Positions 53,754-64,000 of a stretch of 64,000 nt of DNA are shown here, piece by piece. Within the stretch, counting starts at the first letter, position 1. Each line of letters opens with the position of its first letter. Under the pieces are notes generated by a model, which was given only the letters and a program-made list of their open reading frames with translations, did not search any database and had not been told where the DNA came from. A program made the translations under genes and the position numbers. This stretch comes from Candidatus Latescibacterota bacterium (GTDB lineage Bacteria > Latescibacterota > UBA2968 > GCA-2709665). The stretch is from contig OZ244744.1 of assembly GCA_965219455.1 (NCBI GenBank), forward strand, positions 5,344,001 through 5,408,000, given 5' to 3'.

Positions 53754-55223
53754 ATGATTCAACTGACCCAAACCGTTACCCTTCAACAGAAGTTGGCACC
53801 CCAACTCATCCAGTCCTTGCGTCTCCTCCAGATGGCTTCGCTCGAATTGGAACAGTTAATTCAGCAGGAACTGCAGACCAATCCGCTCCTGGAAGTTTCT
53901 GAAGAGACCGGGCGCGAAGAGGAGGAATGGGGTCTGGAGTCGGAAGATGCGGAAGCGGACGATATCGACGCCGGGAGGAAGGAAGCAGACGATGCGGATC
54001 CGCCGGAACTGGAATTCGGCGATGCGACGATGGCCGACGGCCGCTTCGATGAGAACCAGTGGAACGAACTCCTTAACGATGCCGGATATACCGCGCCCCG
54101 GCAGGAGTTCGATCCCAATGCAGAAGATTGGGAGTACGACGGCGCCGAACAGCAATCATTGGAAGCGGAGTTGCAGGTCCAACTCTCTCTTACCGATCTG
54201 GGCGTCGGGGAGCGGAAGATCGGCGAGTACATCATAGGCAATATCGACGAAGATGGCTTTTTGCAGGCACAGGTCGAGGATATTGCCAACGTGTTCGGAG
54301 AAGATGCCAGGACTGTAGAGCGGATTCTGGACGTCATACAGACGTTCGATCCACCGGGCGTGGGTGCACGGGACCTCCCGGAATGCCTGGCGATCCAGCT
54401 TCGCGAGCAGGGGCTGGAGGATTCCCTCGCGATGCGGATCGTGCGCGACCACTGGGATGATCTGGTGAGCCGCCGATACATCAAGATCTGTCGATCGCTG
54501 GGTGCGGACCGGGTCGCAATTGCCAACGCCGAAGGCGTGATCTCGGGCCTGAATCCCAAGCCGATGATCTACAGGGAAGGCCGAATCAATCACAATCTGG
54601 TCGTCCCCGACCTTGAGGTCCAGAAGGTCGGCGACGAGTACGTGGTTTCGCTTATCGACCCCAATCTCCCTTCCCTGCGGGTCAGCCCTGTCTACAGGAC
54701 ACTGCTGAGCAAGTCCGGTAAACCTGGTAGCCAGGCCAGAAAGTTCGTCGTGGATCGTCTGAATTCAGCCCGCTGGTTCATCAGCGCGATCAACCAGCGC
54801 CGTACCACGATGCTCAAGGTCATGCGTTGTATTGTCGACAATCAACGCGCGTTCTTCGACAAGGGAGTTGGATTCCTTAAGCCCATGGTGCTCCAGGAGG
54901 TCGCGGACCGGGTGAACATGCATGTGTCAACGATTAGTCGGGTGAGCAACGGGAAATATGTACAAACGCCACACGGTGTTTTTGAGTTGAAGTACTTTTT
55001 CGACGGCGGGCTGACCCGCAACAACGGCGAAGATATCGCCACAAGGAGCGTGAAACAAAAGATCGCCAGGTTGATTTCCGAGGAGAACACCAGAAAACCT
55101 TTGAGCGATCGGAAAATCGCCGATTTACTGATCGCAGAAGGCATCACGATTGCGCGCCGTACGGTAGCCAAGTATAGAGACCAGTTGAAGATCAATCCGG
55201 CCAGGTACAGAAAGTCAATTTGA
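53754..55223 (+). CDS. rpoN: RNA polymerase sigma-54 factor
   Basis: PQLIQSLRLLQ..NPLLE, DPPGVGAR, HVSTISR, RpoN box ARRTVAKYR. Confidence 0.97.
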   Translation: MIQLTQTVTLQQKLAPQLIQSLRLLQMASLELEQLIQQELQTNPLLEVSEETGREEEEWGLESEDAEADDIDAGRKEADDADPPELEFGDATMADGRFDENQWNELLNDAGYTAPRQEFDPNAEDWEYDGAEQQSLEAELQVQLSLTDLGVGERKIGEYIIGNIDEDGFLQAQVEDIANVFGEDARTVERILDVIQTFDPPGVGARDLPECLAIQLREQGLEDSLAMRIVRDHWDDLVSRRYIKICRSLGADRVAIANAEGVISGLNPKPMIYREGRINHNLVVPDLEVQKVGDEYVVSLIDPNLPSLRVSPVYRTLLSKSGKPGSQARKFVVDRLNSARWFISAINQRRTTMLKVMRCIVDNQRAFFDKGVGFLKPMVLQEVADRVNMHVSTISRVSNGKYVQTPHGVFELKYFFDGGLTRNNGEDIATRSVKQKIARLISEENTRKPLSDRKIADLLIAEGITIARRTVAKYRDQLKINPARYRKSI

Positions 55224-55445: not shown

Positions 55446-56234
55446 CTATCCGTCGGATTGAATCGCGCTGATTTCGTCCGTTGAAATTTTGTGAACACTC
55501 TTGGGATTGAAAGTTTGCCGTGTGCCCGACCTGAGCGCAACTTCGATTCTTCCTCCTGTAAGGACGAAAAACTGGAGCAGGAACCCTCCGCCTTGCATCG
55601 ACTCGACCTGATATTCCCCGGTGTCCATCCCGTCGACCCATTCTGGAAGATGTGCCCTGAAACGGGCATCCGCGCAAACGGATTGCGGTAGCGCCATGAT
55701 CAACGTTCCAGGTATATCGTTCACGGCTTCACCAATTGTCCTTCGAATCCCGGCCAGATAGGGGATCACCTTCCCGGCGTAGTCGAAGTCTTCCTCGTCG
55801 CCCCGCTCGGGTGGAACAATACCCCACGTCATATGGTGTATAAATGGGTTGCCGTGACCCTGGGCGAGCATGTGATCCCGGGCCGCTTCATCCACAGGAT
55901 GGACGACCGCGACGTAGTCAAACCAGCCCTCTCCGCGAGCGGGGCTGTCCTCGGGCAGCCCCGAAGGCACGTTAATGTAGTCGTACCCGTCCACCGGCGA
56001 CGGATAGCACCGGGTGTCCCATCCGGCGACGTAACCGACGCGTTTCAAACGGCCGGCAAGAAGATGCGGGGGATCGACAAAAATTGCGGCATGGTCTGGA
56101 TTCGGCAACAGCGGTACGCCGGCGTCAGAGATTTTTCGTGCGACATCGAGCGCCTCCCGCAGCCGTTCGGAAGCGTTGGAGATGTCGAGTTGCTCGTTGA
56201 AATCGTCCGGCAGGATAACGTTTCCAGGCATCAT
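55446..56234 (-). CDS. Hypothetical protein, possible VOC/HPPD-like Fe(II) dioxygenase fold
   Basis: PDHAA, IHHMTW, FLLQFF, RIEVALR, TFN order of motifs; AGGAG RBS. Confidence 0.6.
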   Translation of the reverse strand: MMPGNVILPDDFNEQLDISNASERLREALDVARKISDAGVPLLPNPDHAAIFVDPPHLLAGRLKRVGYVAGWDTRCYPSPVDGYDYINVPSGLPEDSPARGEGWFDYVAVVHPVDEAARDHMLAQGHGNPFIHHMTWGIVPPERGDEEDFDYAGKVIPYLAGIRRTIGEAVNDIPGTLIMALPQSVCADARFRAHLPEWVDGMDTGEYQVESMQGGGFLLQFFVLTGGRIEVALRSGTRQTFNPKSVHKISTDEISAIQSDG

Positions 56235-56867: not shown

Positions 56868-56883
56868 TGGCATACGGATTGCA
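56868..56883 (+). promoter_or_regulatory. sigma54 (-24/-12) promoter
   Basis: TGGCATACGGATTGCA versus consensus TGGCACG-N4-TTGCW with exact spacing; AT-rich upstream; 42 nt before the GTG start. Confidence 0.7.
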
Positions 56884-56925: not shown

Positions 56926-59100
56926 GTGAAACAGACCCTCTTGATCTTTATCGTGTGCCAGTTCCTGAATCAGAACGCGTTGTTGGCCCAGGCGATCGTC
57001 ACGCCGGATACGCTTCGCTTCGGTCCGGTGCGTGCAGGGACTTCAATTCTGGATAGTGTCATTGTCGTGAACAAGGGTGAGGCCGAAATGATCTTGACTT
57101 CCGGGGTTGTCGACGGAGCTGCCTTCCATTTACCGAACGACCCCTTTTCCGATGCAGACGTCGTGCTGTCGCCTGATCAGCCAATGAATCTTCGGGTTCG
57201 CTTTGAGCCCCAGGATCTGGTTGTCTACACCGCAAATCTGATCGTCGAGACCGGTAGCGACGCTCTGAATATACACCTCGTGGGCGAAGGCGTTCGAGAA
57301 GTTGTGGTCATTCAGGAGATCCTCGCCGATCCGCCCATGGAACTGGAAGGCGACGCCAATGGAGACGGGGCGCGCCACCGCAATCAGGATGAATTCGTGG
57401 AACTGCTGAATATCGGTTTTAAACCCGTCGAGTTGGACGGATGGCAGCTGAGCGATGCGGGCACCGCGGCCCGGGCGCGGTTCACGTTTCCTGAAAACAC
57501 CCTTCTCGAACCTGGCGAGCGCGTGGTTCTGTTTGGAGGTGGTTCTCCATCAGGTTTTTCAGGACTCGTGTTCGTCGACGACGGAACGATCGGAGGGGGC
57601 CTGAATAACCGGGGCGACGCGGTTTTTCTGATAGATCCTTCGGTGCCGGATACCGTGGCAACCGCCGCCTACGGTACCGCGGCGGACAAGAACCAATCGC
57701 TGGTGCGCCACCCGCAGGGCCGGGGACCATTCGTTCTCCATAGTCTGCTTCCCGGTGACGGCGCGCTGTTTTCACCGGGCCGGGCGCGTACGGTCATTCA
57801 GCGAATCGAAGTCGTACCTGCGGATACCACGGTGGAACTGGGAGCTATGATCCGGTTCGAAGCACGGGCTGTATTCGACAATGGGAGCGTGTCCACACTG
57901 GACGACCGGGTGGCCTGGCATTCGACCGATGATGCGGTTATCAGCCTTATGGACGACACCGGGACGGCGGTGGGCGTGGGTACAGCAGAGATAACCGCTA
58001 CAGTCGGGGATGAAGCGGCCACTCCCGGCAAGGTTGTGGTCATGGCCCCCTTCTTGTCGGATCTGCGGGTTGCACCCGCCGACACGCTGCTGGTGGTGGG
58101 TGATGCGCTCCAGTACCGGGTGGATGGCGTGAACGCCGACGGCGTCGAGGAGCCGATCGGGTCCGGGCTGGTTTGGCAAAGCTCGGATTCCACGGTGGCA
58201 CTCCCCAAGGGCGGCAATGTGATGTTGGCCGCGGGCTCTGGAAATGCCTCGTTGGTCGTTCACCTGGACTCCATGTCGGGCACGGCTACGTTCCGGGCTG
58301 GTGACCGTGGAGACCCGAATGCGGATGGCGAATTCGATTTGCTGGATGCGCTCCTTACCGTCTATCTGATCCTGGACATGCGGACCGACGCCGGACCGTA
58401 TGAGCGCAGCGCTGCGGATTTGAATCAGGACGGGCTTGTGGATATTCTGGATCTGGCTGTGTTGATACGCAAAATACTGGGGGTTCCGGCTGGCGGGGCG
58501 AAACCCGCATTGGCCAGTGCTGCCGCGTGGCAATGGGACGGTGAATGCCTGAATATACGTGCTACGTCCAGACTCTCGGCGATTCTGATTGCATTTGACG
58601 GTTACGTCGAGAGCGTGAAACCGCCCGTCGGAACGAAAGCGGTCGTTTCACATTCGCACCCGGGTCAAACACGCGTACTTGTCTTTCCAGTTTCGCCGGA
58701 CGCGCTGGATGGCGGTAACACGGGCCTCCGGCTGGTCACCCGGGGTGGGGCCGGAAGGGTGGCCGAAATGAGGGCCGCGGATATGTGGGGCCGACCGGTC
58801 GTGTTCAACTCCGAAAGGACGGAAAGGTTTGGATTGGAACAGAATTACCCCAATCCGTTCAACGCCTCCACGATAATGGTCTACAGTTTGCAGCGCCGGG
58901 ACTATGCACAGTTGCGAATTTTCTCGACGCTGGGACAGGAAATCGCACGGCCGATCGACGGCCCGGTCGCGGCGGGTACCCATCGAGTTGTCTGGGACGG
59001 CCGCGATGCGGAGGGGCGGCGAGCAGGGAGTGGTGTCTACCTTGTACATCTGGTGACCGGTAAACAGCGGTCTGTGATAAAGATGGTGCTGTTGAGATAA
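56926..59100 (+). CDS. Secreted protein: ASH/Ig-like, lamin-tail domain, 2x Big_2, dockerin, FlgD/T9SS-type C-terminal domain
   Basis: AAGGAG RBS plus GTG, signal peptide; IQEILADP..DEFVELLN..LDGWQLSD; GDPNADGEFDLLD..AADLNQDGLVDILD; QNYPNPFN..WDGRD..SGVY..KMVLLR. Confidence 0.88.
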   Translation: MKQTLLIFIVCQFLNQNALLAQAIVTPDTLRFGPVRAGTSILDSVIVVNKGEAEMILTSGVVDGAAFHLPNDPFSDADVVLSPDQPMNLRVRFEPQDLVVYTANLIVETGSDALNIHLVGEGVREVVVIQEILADPPMELEGDANGDGARHRNQDEFVELLNIGFKPVELDGWQLSDAGTAARARFTFPENTLLEPGERVVLFGGGSPSGFSGLVFVDDGTIGGGLNNRGDAVFLIDPSVPDTVATAAYGTAADKNQSLVRHPQGRGPFVLHSLLPGDGALFSPGRARTVIQRIEVVPADTTVELGAMIRFEARAVFDNGSVSTLDDRVAWHSTDDAVISLMDDTGTAVGVGTAEITATVGDEAATPGKVVVMAPFLSDLRVAPADTLLVVGDALQYRVDGVNADGVEEPIGSGLVWQSSDSTVALPKGGNVMLAAGSGNASLVVHLDSMSGTATFRAGDRGDPNADGEFDLLDALLTVYLILDMRTDAGPYERSAADLNQDGLVDILDLAVLIRKILGVPAGGAKPALASAAAWQWDGECLNIRATSRLSAILIAFDGYVESVKPPVGTKAVVSHSHPGQTRVLVFPVSPDALDGGNTGLRLVTRGGAGRVAEMRAADMWGRPVVFNSERTERFGLEQNYPNPFNASTIMVYSLQRRDYAQLRIFSTLGQEIARPIDGPVAAGTHRVVWDGRDAEGRRAGSGVYLVHLVTGKQRSVIKMVLLR

Positions 59101-59198
59101 ATCCATTGGATCGCAGACAACAGCCGCTGTCAACCGACCTGGCAAACACCGAACCCCCACCCGGCACCTCCATCATCGAATATTGAGGGTATCTCTGC

Positions 59199-62100
59199 AT
59201 GCGTCGCTGTATACACACATTGGCAATCCTGCTTACCCTGGACAGGCCGCCGGCGGGTTACTGCACGCCAGCAGACACACTCAGTGTACTCGGTACAACC
59301 GTTCTGGCCGCGGATACGGCGGGTGTAGAGGTGGTCCTTAAAAATGCACAGACAATAGGGGGTACCTCGTGGACCCTGGGGTATGATTCTTCCGCCATGG
59401 CGGTAGTCGGAGTTGAGCAGACGGAGCGGACCGCAAACATGGTGATCTATTCCCATGCCGCGGGCGATTCAATTAATGCGCTCATCCTGGATCCCTCCAC
59501 CGGGCAGGCGATTCCGCCCGGCGAGGGAGCCATAGCGCTGCTGCGGCTGGTGATTCGCGAATCCGTCCCCGACGGCATCTACCCGGTGACGTTTCGTACG
59601 GTGGATCTGGTGAATGCCGCTCAGCCGCCAGAGCGACTTGCAGCCGTCGGGCTGGCCGGACAGGTTCGGGTTGCGTCCCAGCTTCTGTCCGTCCGGGCAA
59701 CTGGCGGGTCTCCCGGCGACACCGTCTCCGTGTCCCTCAAATTGCATAACAGGGCTGTGGTGGCAGGTTTTCAGGCTGAACTGAGTTGGCCTCAAGACGC
59801 GTTGAGTTTCGTGGAGGCGTTGCCCGCCGATCGGATTGCCCAATGGGATCTGTGGGCGGTTGCCAGAAACGGGAAGGGCGCCACGGTTCTCGCGGCCGAC
59901 CTGGACGGTACGAAGCGGATACCGCCTGGCGAAGGCACTATAGCCGTGTTGAATCTGGCCATCCCCGATCTATCCAACCGTAACGCAGTGCCCGTTTCTA
60001 TTGAAAGTGTGAGATTGGCGGATCCGGAGGGAACGGCATTGGCCGCAGCCTCGGAAGACGGCGAAGTCACCATCGTATCGCACTTGAATAGATCTCCTCA
60101 ACTAACTCTTCCTGAACATATTACGACGTCTGAAGATTCGATGCTTCTCTGGCGCGCACCGGCCTTTGATCCGGACGGGGATCAACTCGAATTCGAAGCC
60201 GAAAACCTCCCGGAATGGCTATCGCTCGACACCCAAACCGGCGAATTCAGCGGCGTACCCCTGGACAGGGATGTGGGCGTTTATTTGGTCAGTCTCCGGG
60301 TTTCCGACGGTCAATTCAGTGTTTCGGACACAACACGGCTTAAAGTCACCAATCTTCCGCCGAAGATTCTAGGTACGCCCGAACGCAGCGTCCGCGTGGG
60401 AGCCGCATACCGTTATGCGCCAGAGGTGCGAAACCTCGATGGTGGGTCTGTTCGTATTGAGCCAGACGGTATGGGTTTTCTGTGCGACGCGGAGTCCGGC
60501 CTCGTTACCTGGCGGCCCGAAAATACGGGCGAATTTCGCTTGCAATTGATCGCGGAGGATCCGAACGGCGGGGAAGCGGTACAGGCTTTCGCAGTAACGG
60601 TCGTAGCTGGTGCCAGAGTGGTGATCGATGAGGTATTGGCGGATCCGGCTACAGGTCCAAACGGCGATGCCAACCGAGACGGGGTTAGAGACGGCAGGGA
60701 AGACGAGTTTGTTGAAATATGGAATATCGACTCGAAGCCGGTGACGATAGGTGGATGGTGGCTAAGCGACGACGACGCCGGGGCGACGGGGCGATTTTAT
60801 TTTCCCGACGGCATGGTACTTGAACCAGGTTCGCGTGCAGTACTGTTTGGTGGTGGCAAACCAAAAGATATTCCTGGGCACGTATTTGTAGACGACGGCA
60901 GTATCGGTAATGGATTGACCAATAAGGGGGATCTGGTGTTGCTGGTCGATCCAGTCTCCGAAGATACGGTGGCAGTGGCCGATTTCCTGGCAAAAGGCGA
61001 CCTGAACCGGTCCGTGGTGAGGCTCGCCGAGGGCATTTACGTCCCACATCCCGATTTACCGGACGGTGGGGTCATATCCCCAGGCCGGCCGCATCCGAAG
61101 CCCATGGCCCCGGACGAAACGGCGAAACCCCCTTCGCCGGTATTTCTGGATGACCCCCCATCGTGGTGCCGGGTTGGCGCGCTCTGTCGGTTCGTGCCCA
61201 GAATTCGCAATCTGGACGGCGGGTTCGTGCACTTGGAGACCCGCGTGCTGGGTGTCGTGTGGGACCGTTCCACGGGTGAGATTTTATGGAGGCCCGATAA
61301 GGAAGGGCGTTTTCGTTTCTGGCAGACCGCGGTAAGTGGCGCGGGCGAAAAGACCGTCAGGCAGTTTGACGTATGGGTCGAGGCCCGTCCACAAATTGCA
61401 ATTGTCGAAATTCTGGCAGACCCTCCGCCCGGCGTAAACGGAGACGTGAATGGAGATGGAACGCGAGACAGCCAGGCGGACGAATTTGTGGAGATCTTGA
61501 ATGAAGGGCCGGATGCAGTCTGGCTTACGGACTGGCGGCTGAGCGACGATGATGTTTCAGCCCGCCGCCAGTTTCGGTTTCCCGATTTCACCAGACTCCA
61601 TCCTGGGGAACGAGCCGTGCTGTTCGGAGGAGGACGGCCTGGGGGGGTTAAGGGCCAGATTTTCGTGGATGACGGTAGCATCGGTAACGGATTGACCAAC
61701 AAGTCGGATGTGATTCTGCTGATCGACCCCGTTCTGAACGACACGCTCGCCCGTGCCTTATATTATGTCGAGACGGATATCAATCAGTCTCTGGCGTGGG
61801 ACGGTACGGCCTGGGTTCCGCATCAGACGCCGCCGGGCCGAGGCGTATTTTCGCCGGGACTGCCACGGGAGTTGGGAACCGTTGCCGGTGACGGCTCGGA
61901 CGACGGTGATGTCAGGCCGAATGAGGATAGTGAACGGTCCCTGAATCCAACAGGACACGTTCCGGCGGGCGTGATTGTCAGTGAAATCCTGGCGAGTCCC
62001 GCGTCTGGTCCAGGCGGCGATACCAACGCCGATGGTGAACGCCACGGATTTCAGGATGAGTTCGTGGAACTCCTGAATGCGGGAACCGACACGGCACGTC

Positions 62101-64000
62101 TTGACGGGTGCAGGCTCGGAGATGACGATGCGCCACCCGATCGTCTTTTTGAATTTCCGGACGGTACGATGCTTCCGCCTGGCGGGTTCCTGGTCCTGTT
62201 TGGTGGCGGTTCGACGTCGGATTTCCCCGGGAAAGCGTTTGTGGACGACGGCAGGATCGGCGACGGCCTCTCTAATTCCGGCGACACAGTCGTATTCCTA
62301 TCACCCGATGGCGTGGACACGCTAGACGCCGCCACCTATGTCAAGGCGCCTGAAGGAACCTCGCTCGTCCGTCTTGAAGATGCCACGCTGCAACGGCATG
62401 ATCGTCTGCCATTCGCCGGGATGTTTTCACCGGGCCGTGCGTCGCCGCTGCTGGTCGGGATCCGCATCGTACCGGACTCACTCGTCATGGAACCTGGATC
62501 CAGCCACGCCGTCACCGCAGAAGGCATTTTCGATTCGGTGACCGTGTCGGATGTCACGAACAGCCTGGAATGGATCGTTGAGGACTCCTCGGTTGCGCGA
62601 CTTGAACCGGGGATGCGGCTACTGGGTGTTGCGCCGGGAGAGACGGCTGTGCATGCACGGTTCGGGCGTCTCACGTCAAACGCCGTCGTCAGGATTCTCT
62701 CGAAGACTACGGACGATAGGGGCGATTCGAGCAATGTGCACGACGACAACACCGGCAGTGCGAATCCACTATCCAATTTTCCGCCGGTAATCCTTTCGCG
62801 CCCGGACACGCTGGCCATCGCGGGTCTCACGTACACGTACCGGCCGATGGCTGAGGATCCCGATGGTGATCCTGTGGTTTTTCTGGCGCCGCGGAGACCT
62901 GCCTGGCTTCAATGGACTGAAACCCGTTTGGAGGGCTTGCCGGAAGACACCGGAAACTGGCCGGTTGTCATGGCAGCCACGGACGGTGGCGACACAACGG
63001 AACAGGCGTTCACCATCCGCGTTGTAAGGCCCGGTTTTCGTCCCGAGAGCCGACCGGACAGCGTTGCCTACGTTGGTGTAACCTGGCGGATGTCTCTGGA
63101 TATCAGCGACGGGATTCAGACTCAGATAGACGGCGGACCCGTTCTCGAAGCCTCGGGCGAATCCCTGGTATGGCGCCCGCAGACGGGCGACGAAGGCCAA
63201 CGGGTAATCACGGTTTTCATGAGTGGAAACGGCGCCGAAAGCCTGGTCTTGACATTCCGGATCACGGTCTGGCCTCGGCCGCTGATCCGCGTCGATGAGA
63301 TTCTGGTCAATCCGATCGCGGATGTTAACGGGGATGGAACTCTGGACCCATACGGAGATCAATTCATCGAATTACTCAATGCCGTCGAGCACGCTGTGGA
63401 TCTGACGGGTTGGACGCTCGGTGACGACGACGGAGAACCGTTTACATTCCCCAGAGGTACGGTTTTGAATGGTGGAGATCGATTGACCCTTGTCGGTGGC
63501 GGGCTGCGCACGGCCCGGAAAGACCGATTTTCCGCCGGCGGCCGCATCGGGAACGGGTTGGCTGCCGCGGATCGGATCCTTCTGATCGCACCGGCCGGAC
63601 CGGATACGCTGGTCGATACGCAGTACACCAACGGACAGATTGACGCCTCTCTGGTGCCTGACCCGCAGAACCCGGGGGCTTGGCTGCCTCACAACCAGAT
63701 TTCGAGCCTGCCGTTGTCGCCGGGCTTGGCCACACCTGTGGCGGATACCGCCGTCGCTGACTCCGCGGGATACGCTGCAAATGGAGTTGAAGCCGACCCG
63801 GTTCACCCATTTCCAAACCCATTCAATTTGCATACGACCATCGGGTTTCGAAGCACCGGCGATCCGGCGGAATTTACGGTGTACAATATTCTCGGACAAC
63901 CCGTACGGCGGTTCATGGTCGGAGCCGGGGCGGGGTTACATCATTTGGTATGGGACGGACGCGACGATATGGGGCGGTCGGTAGGAACTGGCATATATCT
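59199..64000 (+). CDS. Giant secreted scaffold (>1600 aa, 3'-truncated): 2x cohesin, cadherin/He_PIG-like Ig repeats, 4x lamin-tail domain, Big_2, FlgD/T9SS-type C-terminal domain
   Basis: Manual translation from ATG 59199 is open to the window end. GSPGDTVSVSLKLHN..AGFQAEL..IPPGEG.IA; DPDGD..LPEWL; four E(V/I)L..P..D.N.DG..(DE/DQ)F.E repeats; PFPNPFN..YNILGQ..WDGRD..TGIY. Confidence 0.85.
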   Translation, partial: MRRCIHTLAILLTLDRPPAGYCTPADTLSVLGTTVLAADTAGVEVVLKNAQTIGGTSWTLGYDSSAMAVVGVEQTERTANMVIYSHAAGDSINALILDPSTGQAIPPGEGAIALLRLVIRESVPDGIYPVTFRTVDLVNAAQPPERLAAVGLAGQVRVASQLLSVRATGGSPGDTVSVSLKLHNRAVVAGFQAELSWPQDALSFVEALPADRIAQWDLWAVARNGKGATVLAADLDGTKRIPPGEGTIAVLNLAIPDLSNRNAVPVSIESVRLADPEGTALAAASEDGEVTIVSHLNRSPQLTLPEHITTSEDSMLLWRAPAFDPDGDQLEFEAENLPEWLSLDTQTGEFSGVPLDRDVGVYLVSLRVSDGQFSVSDTTRLKVTNLPPKILGTPERSVRVGAAYRYAPEVRNLDGGSVRIEPDGMGFLCDAESGLVTWRPENTGEFRLQLIAEDPNGGEAVQAFAVTVVAGARVVIDEVLADPATGPNGDANRDGVRDGREDEFVEIWNIDSKPVTIGGWWLSDDDAGATGRFYFPDGMVLEPGSRAVLFGGGKPKDIPGHVFVDDGSIGNGLTNKGDLVLLVDPVSEDTVAVADFLAKGDLNRSVVRLAEGIYVPHPDLPDGGVISPGRPHPKPMAPDETAKPPSPVFLDDPPSWCRVGALCRFVPRIRNLDGGFVHLETRVLGVVWDRSTGEILWRPDKEGRFRFWQTAVSGAGEKTVRQFDVWVEARPQIAIVEILADPPPGVNGDVNGDGTRDSQADEFVEILNEGPDAVWLTDWRLSDDDVSARRQFRFPDFTRLHPGERAVLFGGGRPGGVKGQIFVDDGSIGNGLTNKSDVILLIDPVLNDTLARALYYVETDINQSLAWDGTAWVPHQTPPGRGVFSPGLPRELGTVAGDGSDDGDVRPNEDSERSLNPTGHVPAGVIVSEILASPASGPGGDTNADGERHGFQDEFVELLNAGTDTARLDGCRLGDDDAPPDRLFEFPDGTMLPPGGFLVLFGGGSTSDFPGKAFVDDGRIGDGLSNSGDTVVFLSPDGVDTLDAATYVKAPEGTSLVRLEDATLQRHDRLPFAGMFSPGRASPLLVGIRIVPDSLVMEPGSSHAVTAEGIFDSVTVSDVTNSLEWIVEDSSVARLEPGMRLLGVAPGETAVHARFGRLTSNAVVRILSKTTDDRGDSSNVHDDNTGSANPLSNFPPVILSRPDTLAIAGLTYTYRPMAEDPDGDPVVFLAPRRPAWLQWTETRLEGLPEDTGNWPVVMAATDGGDTTEQAFTIRVVRPGFRPESRPDSVAYVGVTWRMSLDISDGIQTQIDGGPVLEASGESLVWRPQTGDEGQRVITVFMSGNGAESLVLTFRITVWPRPLIRVDEILVNPIADVNGDGTLDPYGDQFIELLNAVEHAVDLTGWTLGDDDGEPFTFPRGTVLNGGDRLTLVGGGLRTARKDRFSAGGRIGNGLAAADRILLIAPAGPDTLVDTQYTNGQIDASLVPDPQNPGAWLPHNQISSLPLSPGLATPVADTAVADSAGYAANGVEADPVHPFPNPFNLHTTIGFRSTGDPAEFTVYNILGQPVRRFMVGAGAGLHHLVWDGRDDMGRSVGTGIY

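Follow-up and report, generated by a model that had tools for sequence, protein, structure and literature searches.

The nearest tested precedent for the locus described here is a pair of consecutive open reading frames (ORFs) from the archaeon Archaeoglobus fulgidus, in which ORF2375, a dockerin protein, is reported to bind strongly and specifically to ORF2376, which has an N-terminal cohesin at residues 29–162 (PMC9705933). We analysed a stretch of 64,000 nucleotides (nt) from a Candidatus Latescibacterota bacterium (assembly GCA_965219455.1, contig OZ244744.1, positions 5,344,001 to 5,408,000 of the forward strand; hereafter, the window), at the end of which lie two neighbouring genes: gene 1 encodes a dockerin, and gene 2 opens with two cohesins. 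Both products also carry lamin-tail domains (LTDs) and a C-terminal tail of T9SS (type IX secretion system) type. Judging from sequence comparison, the gene 1 product probably docks on the distal tip of the gene 2 product, giving one Ca2+-dependent surface fibre. The two proteins most likely clip together, because two lineages make the same parts as a single chain from which both modules are missing. The locus is a real, conserved and well-delimited module, probably of non-cellulosomal cohesin–dockerin assembly, and repeated gene fusion is the main argument for it.

As in the non-cellulosomal A. fulgidus pair, the dockerin gene comes first and the N-terminal cohesin is in the next gene. The gene 2 cohesins align to the A. 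fulgidus cohesin 2xdh_A with Z 18.6. To our knowledge, neither ORF2375 nor ORF2376 has an LTD array or a T9SS tail, and ORF2375 reportedly also holds a cohesin. The archaeal system differs in having a single cohesin rather than the two of gene 2, and the part of PMC9705933 available reports no fused relatives. The folds are also shared with clostridial type I pairs (C. acetobutylicum CohA2–Doc0917, 6kgc; A. cellulolyticus ScaB/ScaC), with Z of 17.9–20.7 for the cohesins and 9.0–11.2 for the dockerin, and tandem cohesins are common to gene 2 and clostridial scaffoldins; the gene 2 cohesins are 18–22% identical to the ten best-matching cohesin chains. Unlike clostridial cellulosomes, however, the locus has one dedicated partner rather than many, and since neither a catalytic partner nor a cellulose-binding module (CBM) was found, it is not a cellulosome. 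An earlier reading made from the letters of the window only (the sequence-only reading) had described the assembly as enzyme-free. That description stands insofar as no catalytic family exceeded its cut-off in either protein (Pfam and NCBIfam scans) and no CBM family matched (Pfam, E up to 1); it is nevertheless a statement about absent family matches, and the LTDs carry unexplained conserved Asp, Glu, Ser and His residues.

Two genome-inferred, non-cellulolytic hypotheses use similar parts. The ‘planctosome’ model of freshwater Planctomycetes combines an LTD-and-cohesin anchoring protein with a dockerin-plus-cohesin adaptor (PMC6461901), and in the cellulosome-like complex of Candidatus Stygibacter (Cloacimonadota) the cohesin scaffold bears a T9SS-type domain at its C-terminus (PMC8542988). 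Unlike the products of gene 1 and gene 2, both complexes are proposed to display peptidases or glycosidases, and in the available portions of these two papers neither a private pair nor fusion evidence is described. Cohesin–dockerin pairing needs experiment, and roles outside cellulosomes are an acknowledged open point (PMC9012536). No paper dealing with this locus turned up in the literature searched, which did not extend to supplements and subscription papers, and absence from print is not established; the words dockerin and cohesin do not occur in PMC4454575 or PMC12993501.

Gene 1 and its domains are arranged as follows (window coordinates; aa, amino acids):

56926..59100, + strand: gene 1, 724 aa from a GTG start; signal peptide, Ig (ASH/HYDIN-like), LTD, two Big_2, dockerin, cohesin-like domain and T9SS-type tail.
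56995..57291, + strand: N-terminal Ig domain (HYDIN/VesB/ASH-like); PF22544 E 8.7e-5, below cut-off.
57298..57792, + strand: LTD with a DxNxDG loop; PF00932 61.6 bits, conserved positions.
57793..58302, + strand: two Big_2 Ig-like spacers; PF02368 24.1 bits, own profile.
58309..58479, + strand: dockerin, the sole genome member of its subtype; PF00404, fold and subtype profile.
58513..58815, + strand: probable degenerate cohesin-fold domain between dockerin and tail; nine strands in the AlphaFold model, structural and profile matches.
58846..59097, + strand: T9SS type A sorting domain (PNPFN, FlgD-like); TIGR04183 29 bits (cut-off 23).

The two-loop dockerin that the sequence-only reading saw in gene 1 proved sound. 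It spans aa 468–524 and scores 34.3 bits against PF00404 (cut-off 22.9), and its AlphaFold model, with three helices, aligns to the clostridial dockerin 2ccl_B (Z 11.2, rmsd 1.4, 62 aligned). The loop Asp/Asn residues are conserved in 14–15 of 15 orthologues, with Ca2+-loop residues invariant in all 15, and the dN/dS of the dockerin is 0.26. That reading overlooked the domain that follows. We conclude that gene 1 probably ends in a dockerin, a degenerate cohesin and a tail, because the nine-strand model of the 100 aa behind the dockerin best matches cohesins (2vo8_A, Z 9.5, rmsd 2.6, 100 aligned; 6kgc_A, Z 9.3; 2xdh_A, Z 8.9) and because Pfam recognises a cohesin at this position in two homologues of 17 (genomes G049 and G050). 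Profile comparison with cohesin 2 of gene 2 gave a match probability of 88%. Cohesin matches to this domain span Z 8.2–9.5 over about 100 aligned residues, with YcnI-type Ig folds near (Z 8.5–8.8); it has no Pfam match, and the PF00963 cut-off is not reached. A Foldseek search with a three-domain gene 1 model returned a cohesin–FN3 construct first and was uninformative after that, the remainder being antibody fragments. The cohesin-like domain is a rival partner for the dockerin, and we return to it below.

Gene 2 is organised as follows:

59199..64000, + strand: gene 2, 1619 aa; the stop codon lies 58 nt beyond the window end.
59271..59678, + strand: cohesin 1; PF00963 28.6 bits (cut-off 24.1), fold Z 20.7 to 6kgc_A.
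59679..60083, + strand: cohesin 2; PF00963 24.7 bits (cut-off 24.1), fold Z 19.8 to 5nrk_A.
60090..60608, + strand: two He_PIG/cadherin-like Ig spacers; PF05345 65.5 bits over the protein, own profile.
60612..61097, + strand: LTD 1; Pfam; same-genus fusions join the gene 1 front immediately upstream.
61389..61871, + strand: LTD 2; Pfam, own profile.
61965..62447, + strand: LTD 3; Pfam, own profile.
62448..63275, + strand: Big_2 (weak) and two more Ig spacers; Pfam, own profile.
63279..63737, + strand: LTD 4, the most divergent; own profile, LTD tree.
63810..64000 and past the window end, + strand: T9SS type A sorting domain; TIGR04183 31.2 bits (cut-off 23).

Several further statements of the sequence-only reading were borne out by this map. 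Gene 2, which it noted to lack an in-window stop, translates from 59199 to the length given above. The two tandem cohesin-like domains at its start each pass PF00963 alone and each contain IPPGEG, as had been seen. Their AlphaFold model has a pLDDT of 94.2 and shows the nine-stranded beta-sandwich typical of cohesins, and rather than unrelated beta-sandwiches, cohesins fill all of the top 20 structural matches (Z 13.3–20.7; rmsd 1.5 over 135 aligned residues for the type I cohesin 6kgc_A). Within cohesin 2, the Gln in strand 3 and the Asp after strand 6 are invariant in 15 of 15 orthologues. LTDs had been recognised in both genes, and Pfam places PF00932 once in gene 1 and four times in gene 2; the shared PNPFN C-terminal domain exceeds the TIGR04183 cut-off in both proteins. 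By eye, a signal peptide is clear in gene 1 and in most gene 2 orthologues; in gene 2 itself it is short and atypical.

The modules of the two genes stand apart from the other cohesins and dockerins of the genome. Pfam (E up to 0.01) gave 53 dockerin, 13 cohesin and 24 tail matches in the genome, and profiles built from the genome’s own hits gave 102 dockerin ORFs (at least 30 bits), 22 cohesin ORFs and 27 tails. The survey of other dockerin proteins that the sequence-only reading had proposed thus found about 100, none of the gene 1 subtype: nearly all are of one type (DFDGDG..FSDF..F), the profile of which does not detect the gene 1 dockerin, whereas the profile of gene 1 orthologue dockerins gives gene 1 104 bits and the next ORF 11.8. 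Gene 1, the subtype’s only carrier in the genome, has no catalytic family match. None of the genome’s 21 other cohesin domains exceeds 22% identity to those of gene 2. For the cohesin side we built a cognate-subtype profile from 10 unrelated proteins in which a Pfam cohesin directly precedes such a dockerin (34 scanned), with gene 2 excluded. The gene 2 cohesins score 60.9 and 57.6 bits on this profile, the best of the 21 others 20.8 and the cohesin-like domain of gene 1 0.1; among all 41,939 ORFs, it matches gene 2 only. The matching dockerin profile finds gene 1 only among the same ORFs, but this half of the test is circular, because its 10 proteins were found with the gene 1 alignment. The cohesin profile repeats, with Pfam-picked domains, a comparison that we set aside, in which gene 2 cohesins were nearer to upstream than to downstream tail cohesins (27 of 33), the 33 having been picked with gene 2 profiles.

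The main-type dockerins have features of their own. The roughly 100 ORFs that carry them (for example at C1:681501-717126, 3762745-3834704 and 4388577-4415050) include only two with a T9SS tail, and they adjoin small cohesin-plus-tail proteins of 275–311 aa and giants headed by cohesin and dockerin. Together with their cohesin proteins they appear to make up a large second assembly system.

To place the locus among relatives, we surveyed 168 genomes of the phylum, 97 of which have this LTD type (E up to 1e-20), and mapped domains in 55 LTD loci from other genomes plus five dockerin loci; G000 denotes the genome holding the window and other G numbers other genomes of the phylum. The conservation of the gene pair, which the sequence-only reading had suggested surveying, extends to 18 genomes and into another class, in each case with the dockerin gene followed by the cohesin-headed gene. 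Fifteen of these loci were used to build profiles (G000, 11, 13, 15, 17, 19, 20, 22, 24, 34, 38, 79, 80, 81 and 83; G038 was left out of the profile for the cohesin-like domain), and all 15 keep both gene 2 cohesins. The pair in G077, in which gene 2 is interrupted, was found only by profile search, and those of G049 and G050, from the other class, have one cohesin and were left out of the dockerin and cohesin alignments.

Within the genus of G000, by contrast with these split pairs, 11 of the 14 other genomes have one fused gene, in which the gene 1 signal peptide, Ig, LTD and part of Big_2 continue in frame into gene 2 from LTD 1 through the tail. The N-terminal Ig of gene 1 is retained in all 11, and four junction lengths occur. 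Of the 21 genomes of another genus, g6, which belongs to another family, 17 have a single fused gene, and it is likewise sited at this locus, behind rpoN. The first LTD of the fused genes is of gene 1 type in 27 of 28 (LTD tree) and the tail of gene 2 type in 28 of 28 (tail tree, support 100/96); five genomes of family f4 were left out of both trees. In one genome, G089 (L065), the first LTD groups with gene 2 LTDs, unlike in 16 sister genomes, and gene conversion is possible. A three-marker tree groups the fused genomes, with weak support, into a single clade per genus and places split relatives outside. The dN/dS of the fused genes is 0.18–0.25 (six pairs), as against 0.22–0.30 for the split genes (three pairs), and the fused genes are under purifying selection. 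From these fusions it is evident that a single chain made of both halves is functional. A third fusion, which the LTD tree leaves unresolved, is possible in family f4 (G097, G100, P0077, P0079 and P0098). Five loci of that family (L068, L069, L071, L072 and L073) have up to nine LTDs per ORF, tandem LTD genes, tails and varied copy number, with no cohesin or dockerin.

Fusion is accompanied by loss of both modules. Of the 168 genomes, 28 have the dockerin subtype and 20 the cohesin dyad, in each case as one copy and with strong scores, but neither was found in any of the 28 fused genomes (best 36 dockerin and 15 cohesin candidates per genome). All five fused genomes examined nevertheless keep 13–44 other dockerins and 2–5 other cohesins. 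The operon in 18 genomes, the uniqueness of the subtype and the loss of both modules on fusion partly support a dedicated pair.

We propose the following mechanism. Sigma-54 would drive one transcript of gene 1 and gene 2, and the two proteins would be exported separately, by Sec across the inner membrane and by a T9SS-like route across the outer. Ca2+ would fold the dockerin, which lies towards the C-terminus of protein 1, and outside the cell the dockerin would bind one of the N-terminal cohesins of protein 2. With protein 2 anchored by its C-terminus, protein 1 would be released and then captured as a tip extension, and the order read from the tip (Ig, LTD, spacers, joint, LTD array) would be that of the fused chain. 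The pair would be insulated from the roughly 100 other dockerin proteins because nothing else in the genome uses its subtype. The sequence-only reading had gone further, making gene 2 a scaffoldin that binds up to two copies of gene 1. The term overstates the case, since protein 2 resembles a single fibre’s stalk more than a hub, and the 2:1 ratio is unsupported. A 1:1 ratio is at least as likely, because each fused body has one gene 1 front, the two genes are codon-coupled in 8 of 17 split loci (gene 2 starting 1 nt after the gene 1 stop or overlapping it) and the two distant relatives have one cohesin. Two copies per scaffold are possible, both cohesins being kept in the 15 profile-building loci.

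The locus names one specific, cheaply testable cohesin–dockerin pair and offers a natural experiment, in that two lineages swapped the pair for a peptide bond and the product is still under selection. If binding is true, the modules would not be holding enzymes but joining the parts of a single adhesin; the two genes would provide a first cognate pair for a widespread subtype on T9SS-tailed proteins, and an orthogonal pair for designer scaffolds.

A number of observations weigh against docking of protein 1 on protein 2. The bootstrap support of the two fused clades is weak, at 62–66 and 72 (values of 66 and 72, and of 62/88), and for this reason we count fusion as two or three events. The co-loss also amounts to two or three events rather than 28, and it is forced by gene order, since the retained parts flank the dockerin and the cohesins and one deletion removes both. 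In G026, gene 1 is absent and gene 2 (L037:3409-6369) is 5′-truncated: it starts within the cohesin dyad, retains cohesin 2 and lacks a signal peptide, and the locus is probably a deletion relic. Each protein has its own T9SS-type tail and might therefore be anchored alone, and the genome’s PorU-like gene falls below the family cut-off. In close pairs, the cohesin-like domain of gene 1 is no more relaxed than cohesin 2 (dN/dS 0.50 for both), which gives no support to the idea that it is under relaxed selection. Finally, the gene 1 ending of dockerin, cohesin-like domain and tail is widespread: 19,270 proteins match a profile of this ending at E up to 0.001, and among the best 150 matches 89 have it, 76 of them without an LTD. 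Since the ending is generic among unrelated exported proteins, the dockerin need not have its partner next door.

This last point is also the strength of an alternative in which the dockerin binds the cohesin-like domain of protein 1 itself, within the same chain or head-to-tail, while the gene 2 cohesins are idle or serve another partner and the fusions are deletions between tandem LTD paralogues. The cohesin-like fold of the post-dockerin domain in the AlphaFold model and the Pfam cohesin of G049 and G050 favour it, as do the occurrence of the same ending on peptidases, leucine-rich repeat (LRR) and beta-helix proteins, among others, and the dN/dS just given, which indicates recent constraint. 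Over long distances, however, the cohesin-like domain is the least conserved, with a mean identity of 21% (dockerin 52%, cohesins 30% and 28%); it lacks the Gln of the family GxQ motif, and it scores next to nothing on the cognate-subtype cohesin profile. Self-binding would also leave two well-folded cohesins, retained at every profile-building locus, without any dockerin of their subtype. We therefore consider it unlikely.

The two kinds of binding might also be combined, in a cell that runs two insulated cohesin–dockerin codes, of which this one would be a post-export joint. In an enzyme-free fibre, each protein 2 cohesin would take one protein 1, the cohesin-fold domain of which would accept more, with branching or lengthening as the outcome; the fused lineages would then have traded an adjustable fibre for a fixed chain. 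We regard this elaboration as doubtful.

It is less probable still that the modules are disappearing remnants, with the two proteins independent and nothing assembled. Broken copies, frameshifted or interrupted, do exist in G007, G015, G023, G038 and G077 (that of G007, in the same genus, is frameshifted), and they count against the docking of protein 1 on protein 2 as well; no locus was found in G003, also of the same genus, and in one large family LTD arrays that lack both modules are found in many relatives (6 of 6 loci retrieved intact). The low dN/dS and invariant Ca2+-loop residues of the dockerin, the high-confidence cohesin folds and the retention of the pair across a class all argue against decay.

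That the main dockerin class as a whole uses gene 2 as its scaffoldin or anchor, with gene 1 merely one neighbour, is very improbable: main-type dockerin proteins do need cohesin anchors, because only 2 of the 102 have their own tail, but the genome has 21 other cohesins, fused relatives lose the gene 2 cohesins while keeping main dockerins, and the gene 2 cohesins match the other subtype.

The wider homologues favour the preferred reading, docking of protein 1 on protein 2. Among the 120 listed (398–1267 aa), the dockerin is present in 38 of 39 single-LTD proteins of gene 1 type, the other being a partial record, and in 0 of 81 multi-LTD proteins. A separate observation concerns unrelated exported proteins, for which cohesin, dockerin, cohesin-like domain and tail are a frequent one-chain ending (33 of 80 with an upstream region; P0143-P0284). 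Where a cohesin immediately precedes the dockerin, such proteins might link up with one another in chains.

We next consider how such a fibre would reach the surface and what it would do there. In Bacteroidota the type A tail is cut off, and the cargo is then anchored or released. Both proteins resemble T9SS type A cargo in having a TIGR04183 tail above cut-off in a genome with SprA and PorV-like genes; a search for SprA, PorV and PorU gave SprA and four PorV matches above cut-off. Unlike the usual cargo, they come from outside Bacteroidota and from a genome with the sub-threshold PorU-like gene noted above, and their T9SS-like export and anchoring are predictions. The PorU-like protein has 1953 aa and a T9SS tail of its own (G000:C1:3762745-3768603). 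All five LTDs, one in gene 1 and four in gene 2, are net acidic, and across 232 LTDs the DxNxDG loop and positions with conserved E, D, S and H recur in at least 94%. We take the loop to be of a Ca2+-binding type, and our best guess is that the acidic LTD array binds Ca2+ and serves adhesion or matrix attachment. The conserved Asp, Glu, Ser and His might conceivably form a cryptic catalytic site. DNA binding has been suggested for LTDs on the basis of LTD-fused DNases (PMC4486849), but we disfavour it here because all five are net acidic. A sequence search of the PDB with the LTDs found no credible match (3 matches, best E 0.085), and a search of the Atlas returned LTD clusters only.

Both genes lie on the + strand at the window end, downstream of rpoN and of a 262-aa ORF on the − strand. 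The upstream features are:

53754-55223: rpoN, upstream of gene 1.
56868..56883, + strand: sigma-54-type −24/−12 motif, TGGCA-N6-TTGCA, 42 nt upstream of the gene 1 start.

The sequence TGGCATACGGATTGCA at 56868-56883 carries GG at −24 with GC at −12, a spacing of 12 nt, and matches the sigma-54 −24/−12 consensus. Of 56 LTD loci, 31 have the strict pattern close to the start, among them 26 of the 28 fused loci (expected, 0.0044 per 500 nt), and a relaxed pattern, adopted after misses were seen, is present in 14 of 17 split loci. The gap between the genes is 98 nt here and contains no terminator-like site; a scan of sigma-70 promoters and terminators gave 4 and 13 sites, with 3.6 and 9.0 expected, none between the genes. 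Gene 1 and gene 2 most likely form one operon, with sigma-54 as its predicted driver.

The split layout is real rather than an assembly artefact, because contigs of sequencing runs X9 and X13, from studies distinct from that of the near-identical X3, which may be the source, span the junction of the two genes, and in four of four runs the contigs cover the 30 bins without a listed joint. In public gene calls, members of the gene 1 cluster are 724 aa long, the length found here. A related-locus search returned one locus; the closest named record is a Candidatus Latescibacterota metagenome-assembled genome (MAG), with 85% identity over the best segment. The candidate sigma-54 promoter is 1.6 kb downstream of rpoN itself, an arrangement kept in two families. 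The 262-aa ORF (55446-56234, − strand) is divergent from the operon and has no Pfam or NCBIfam match; it stays beside the operon across two families at 61–92% identity.

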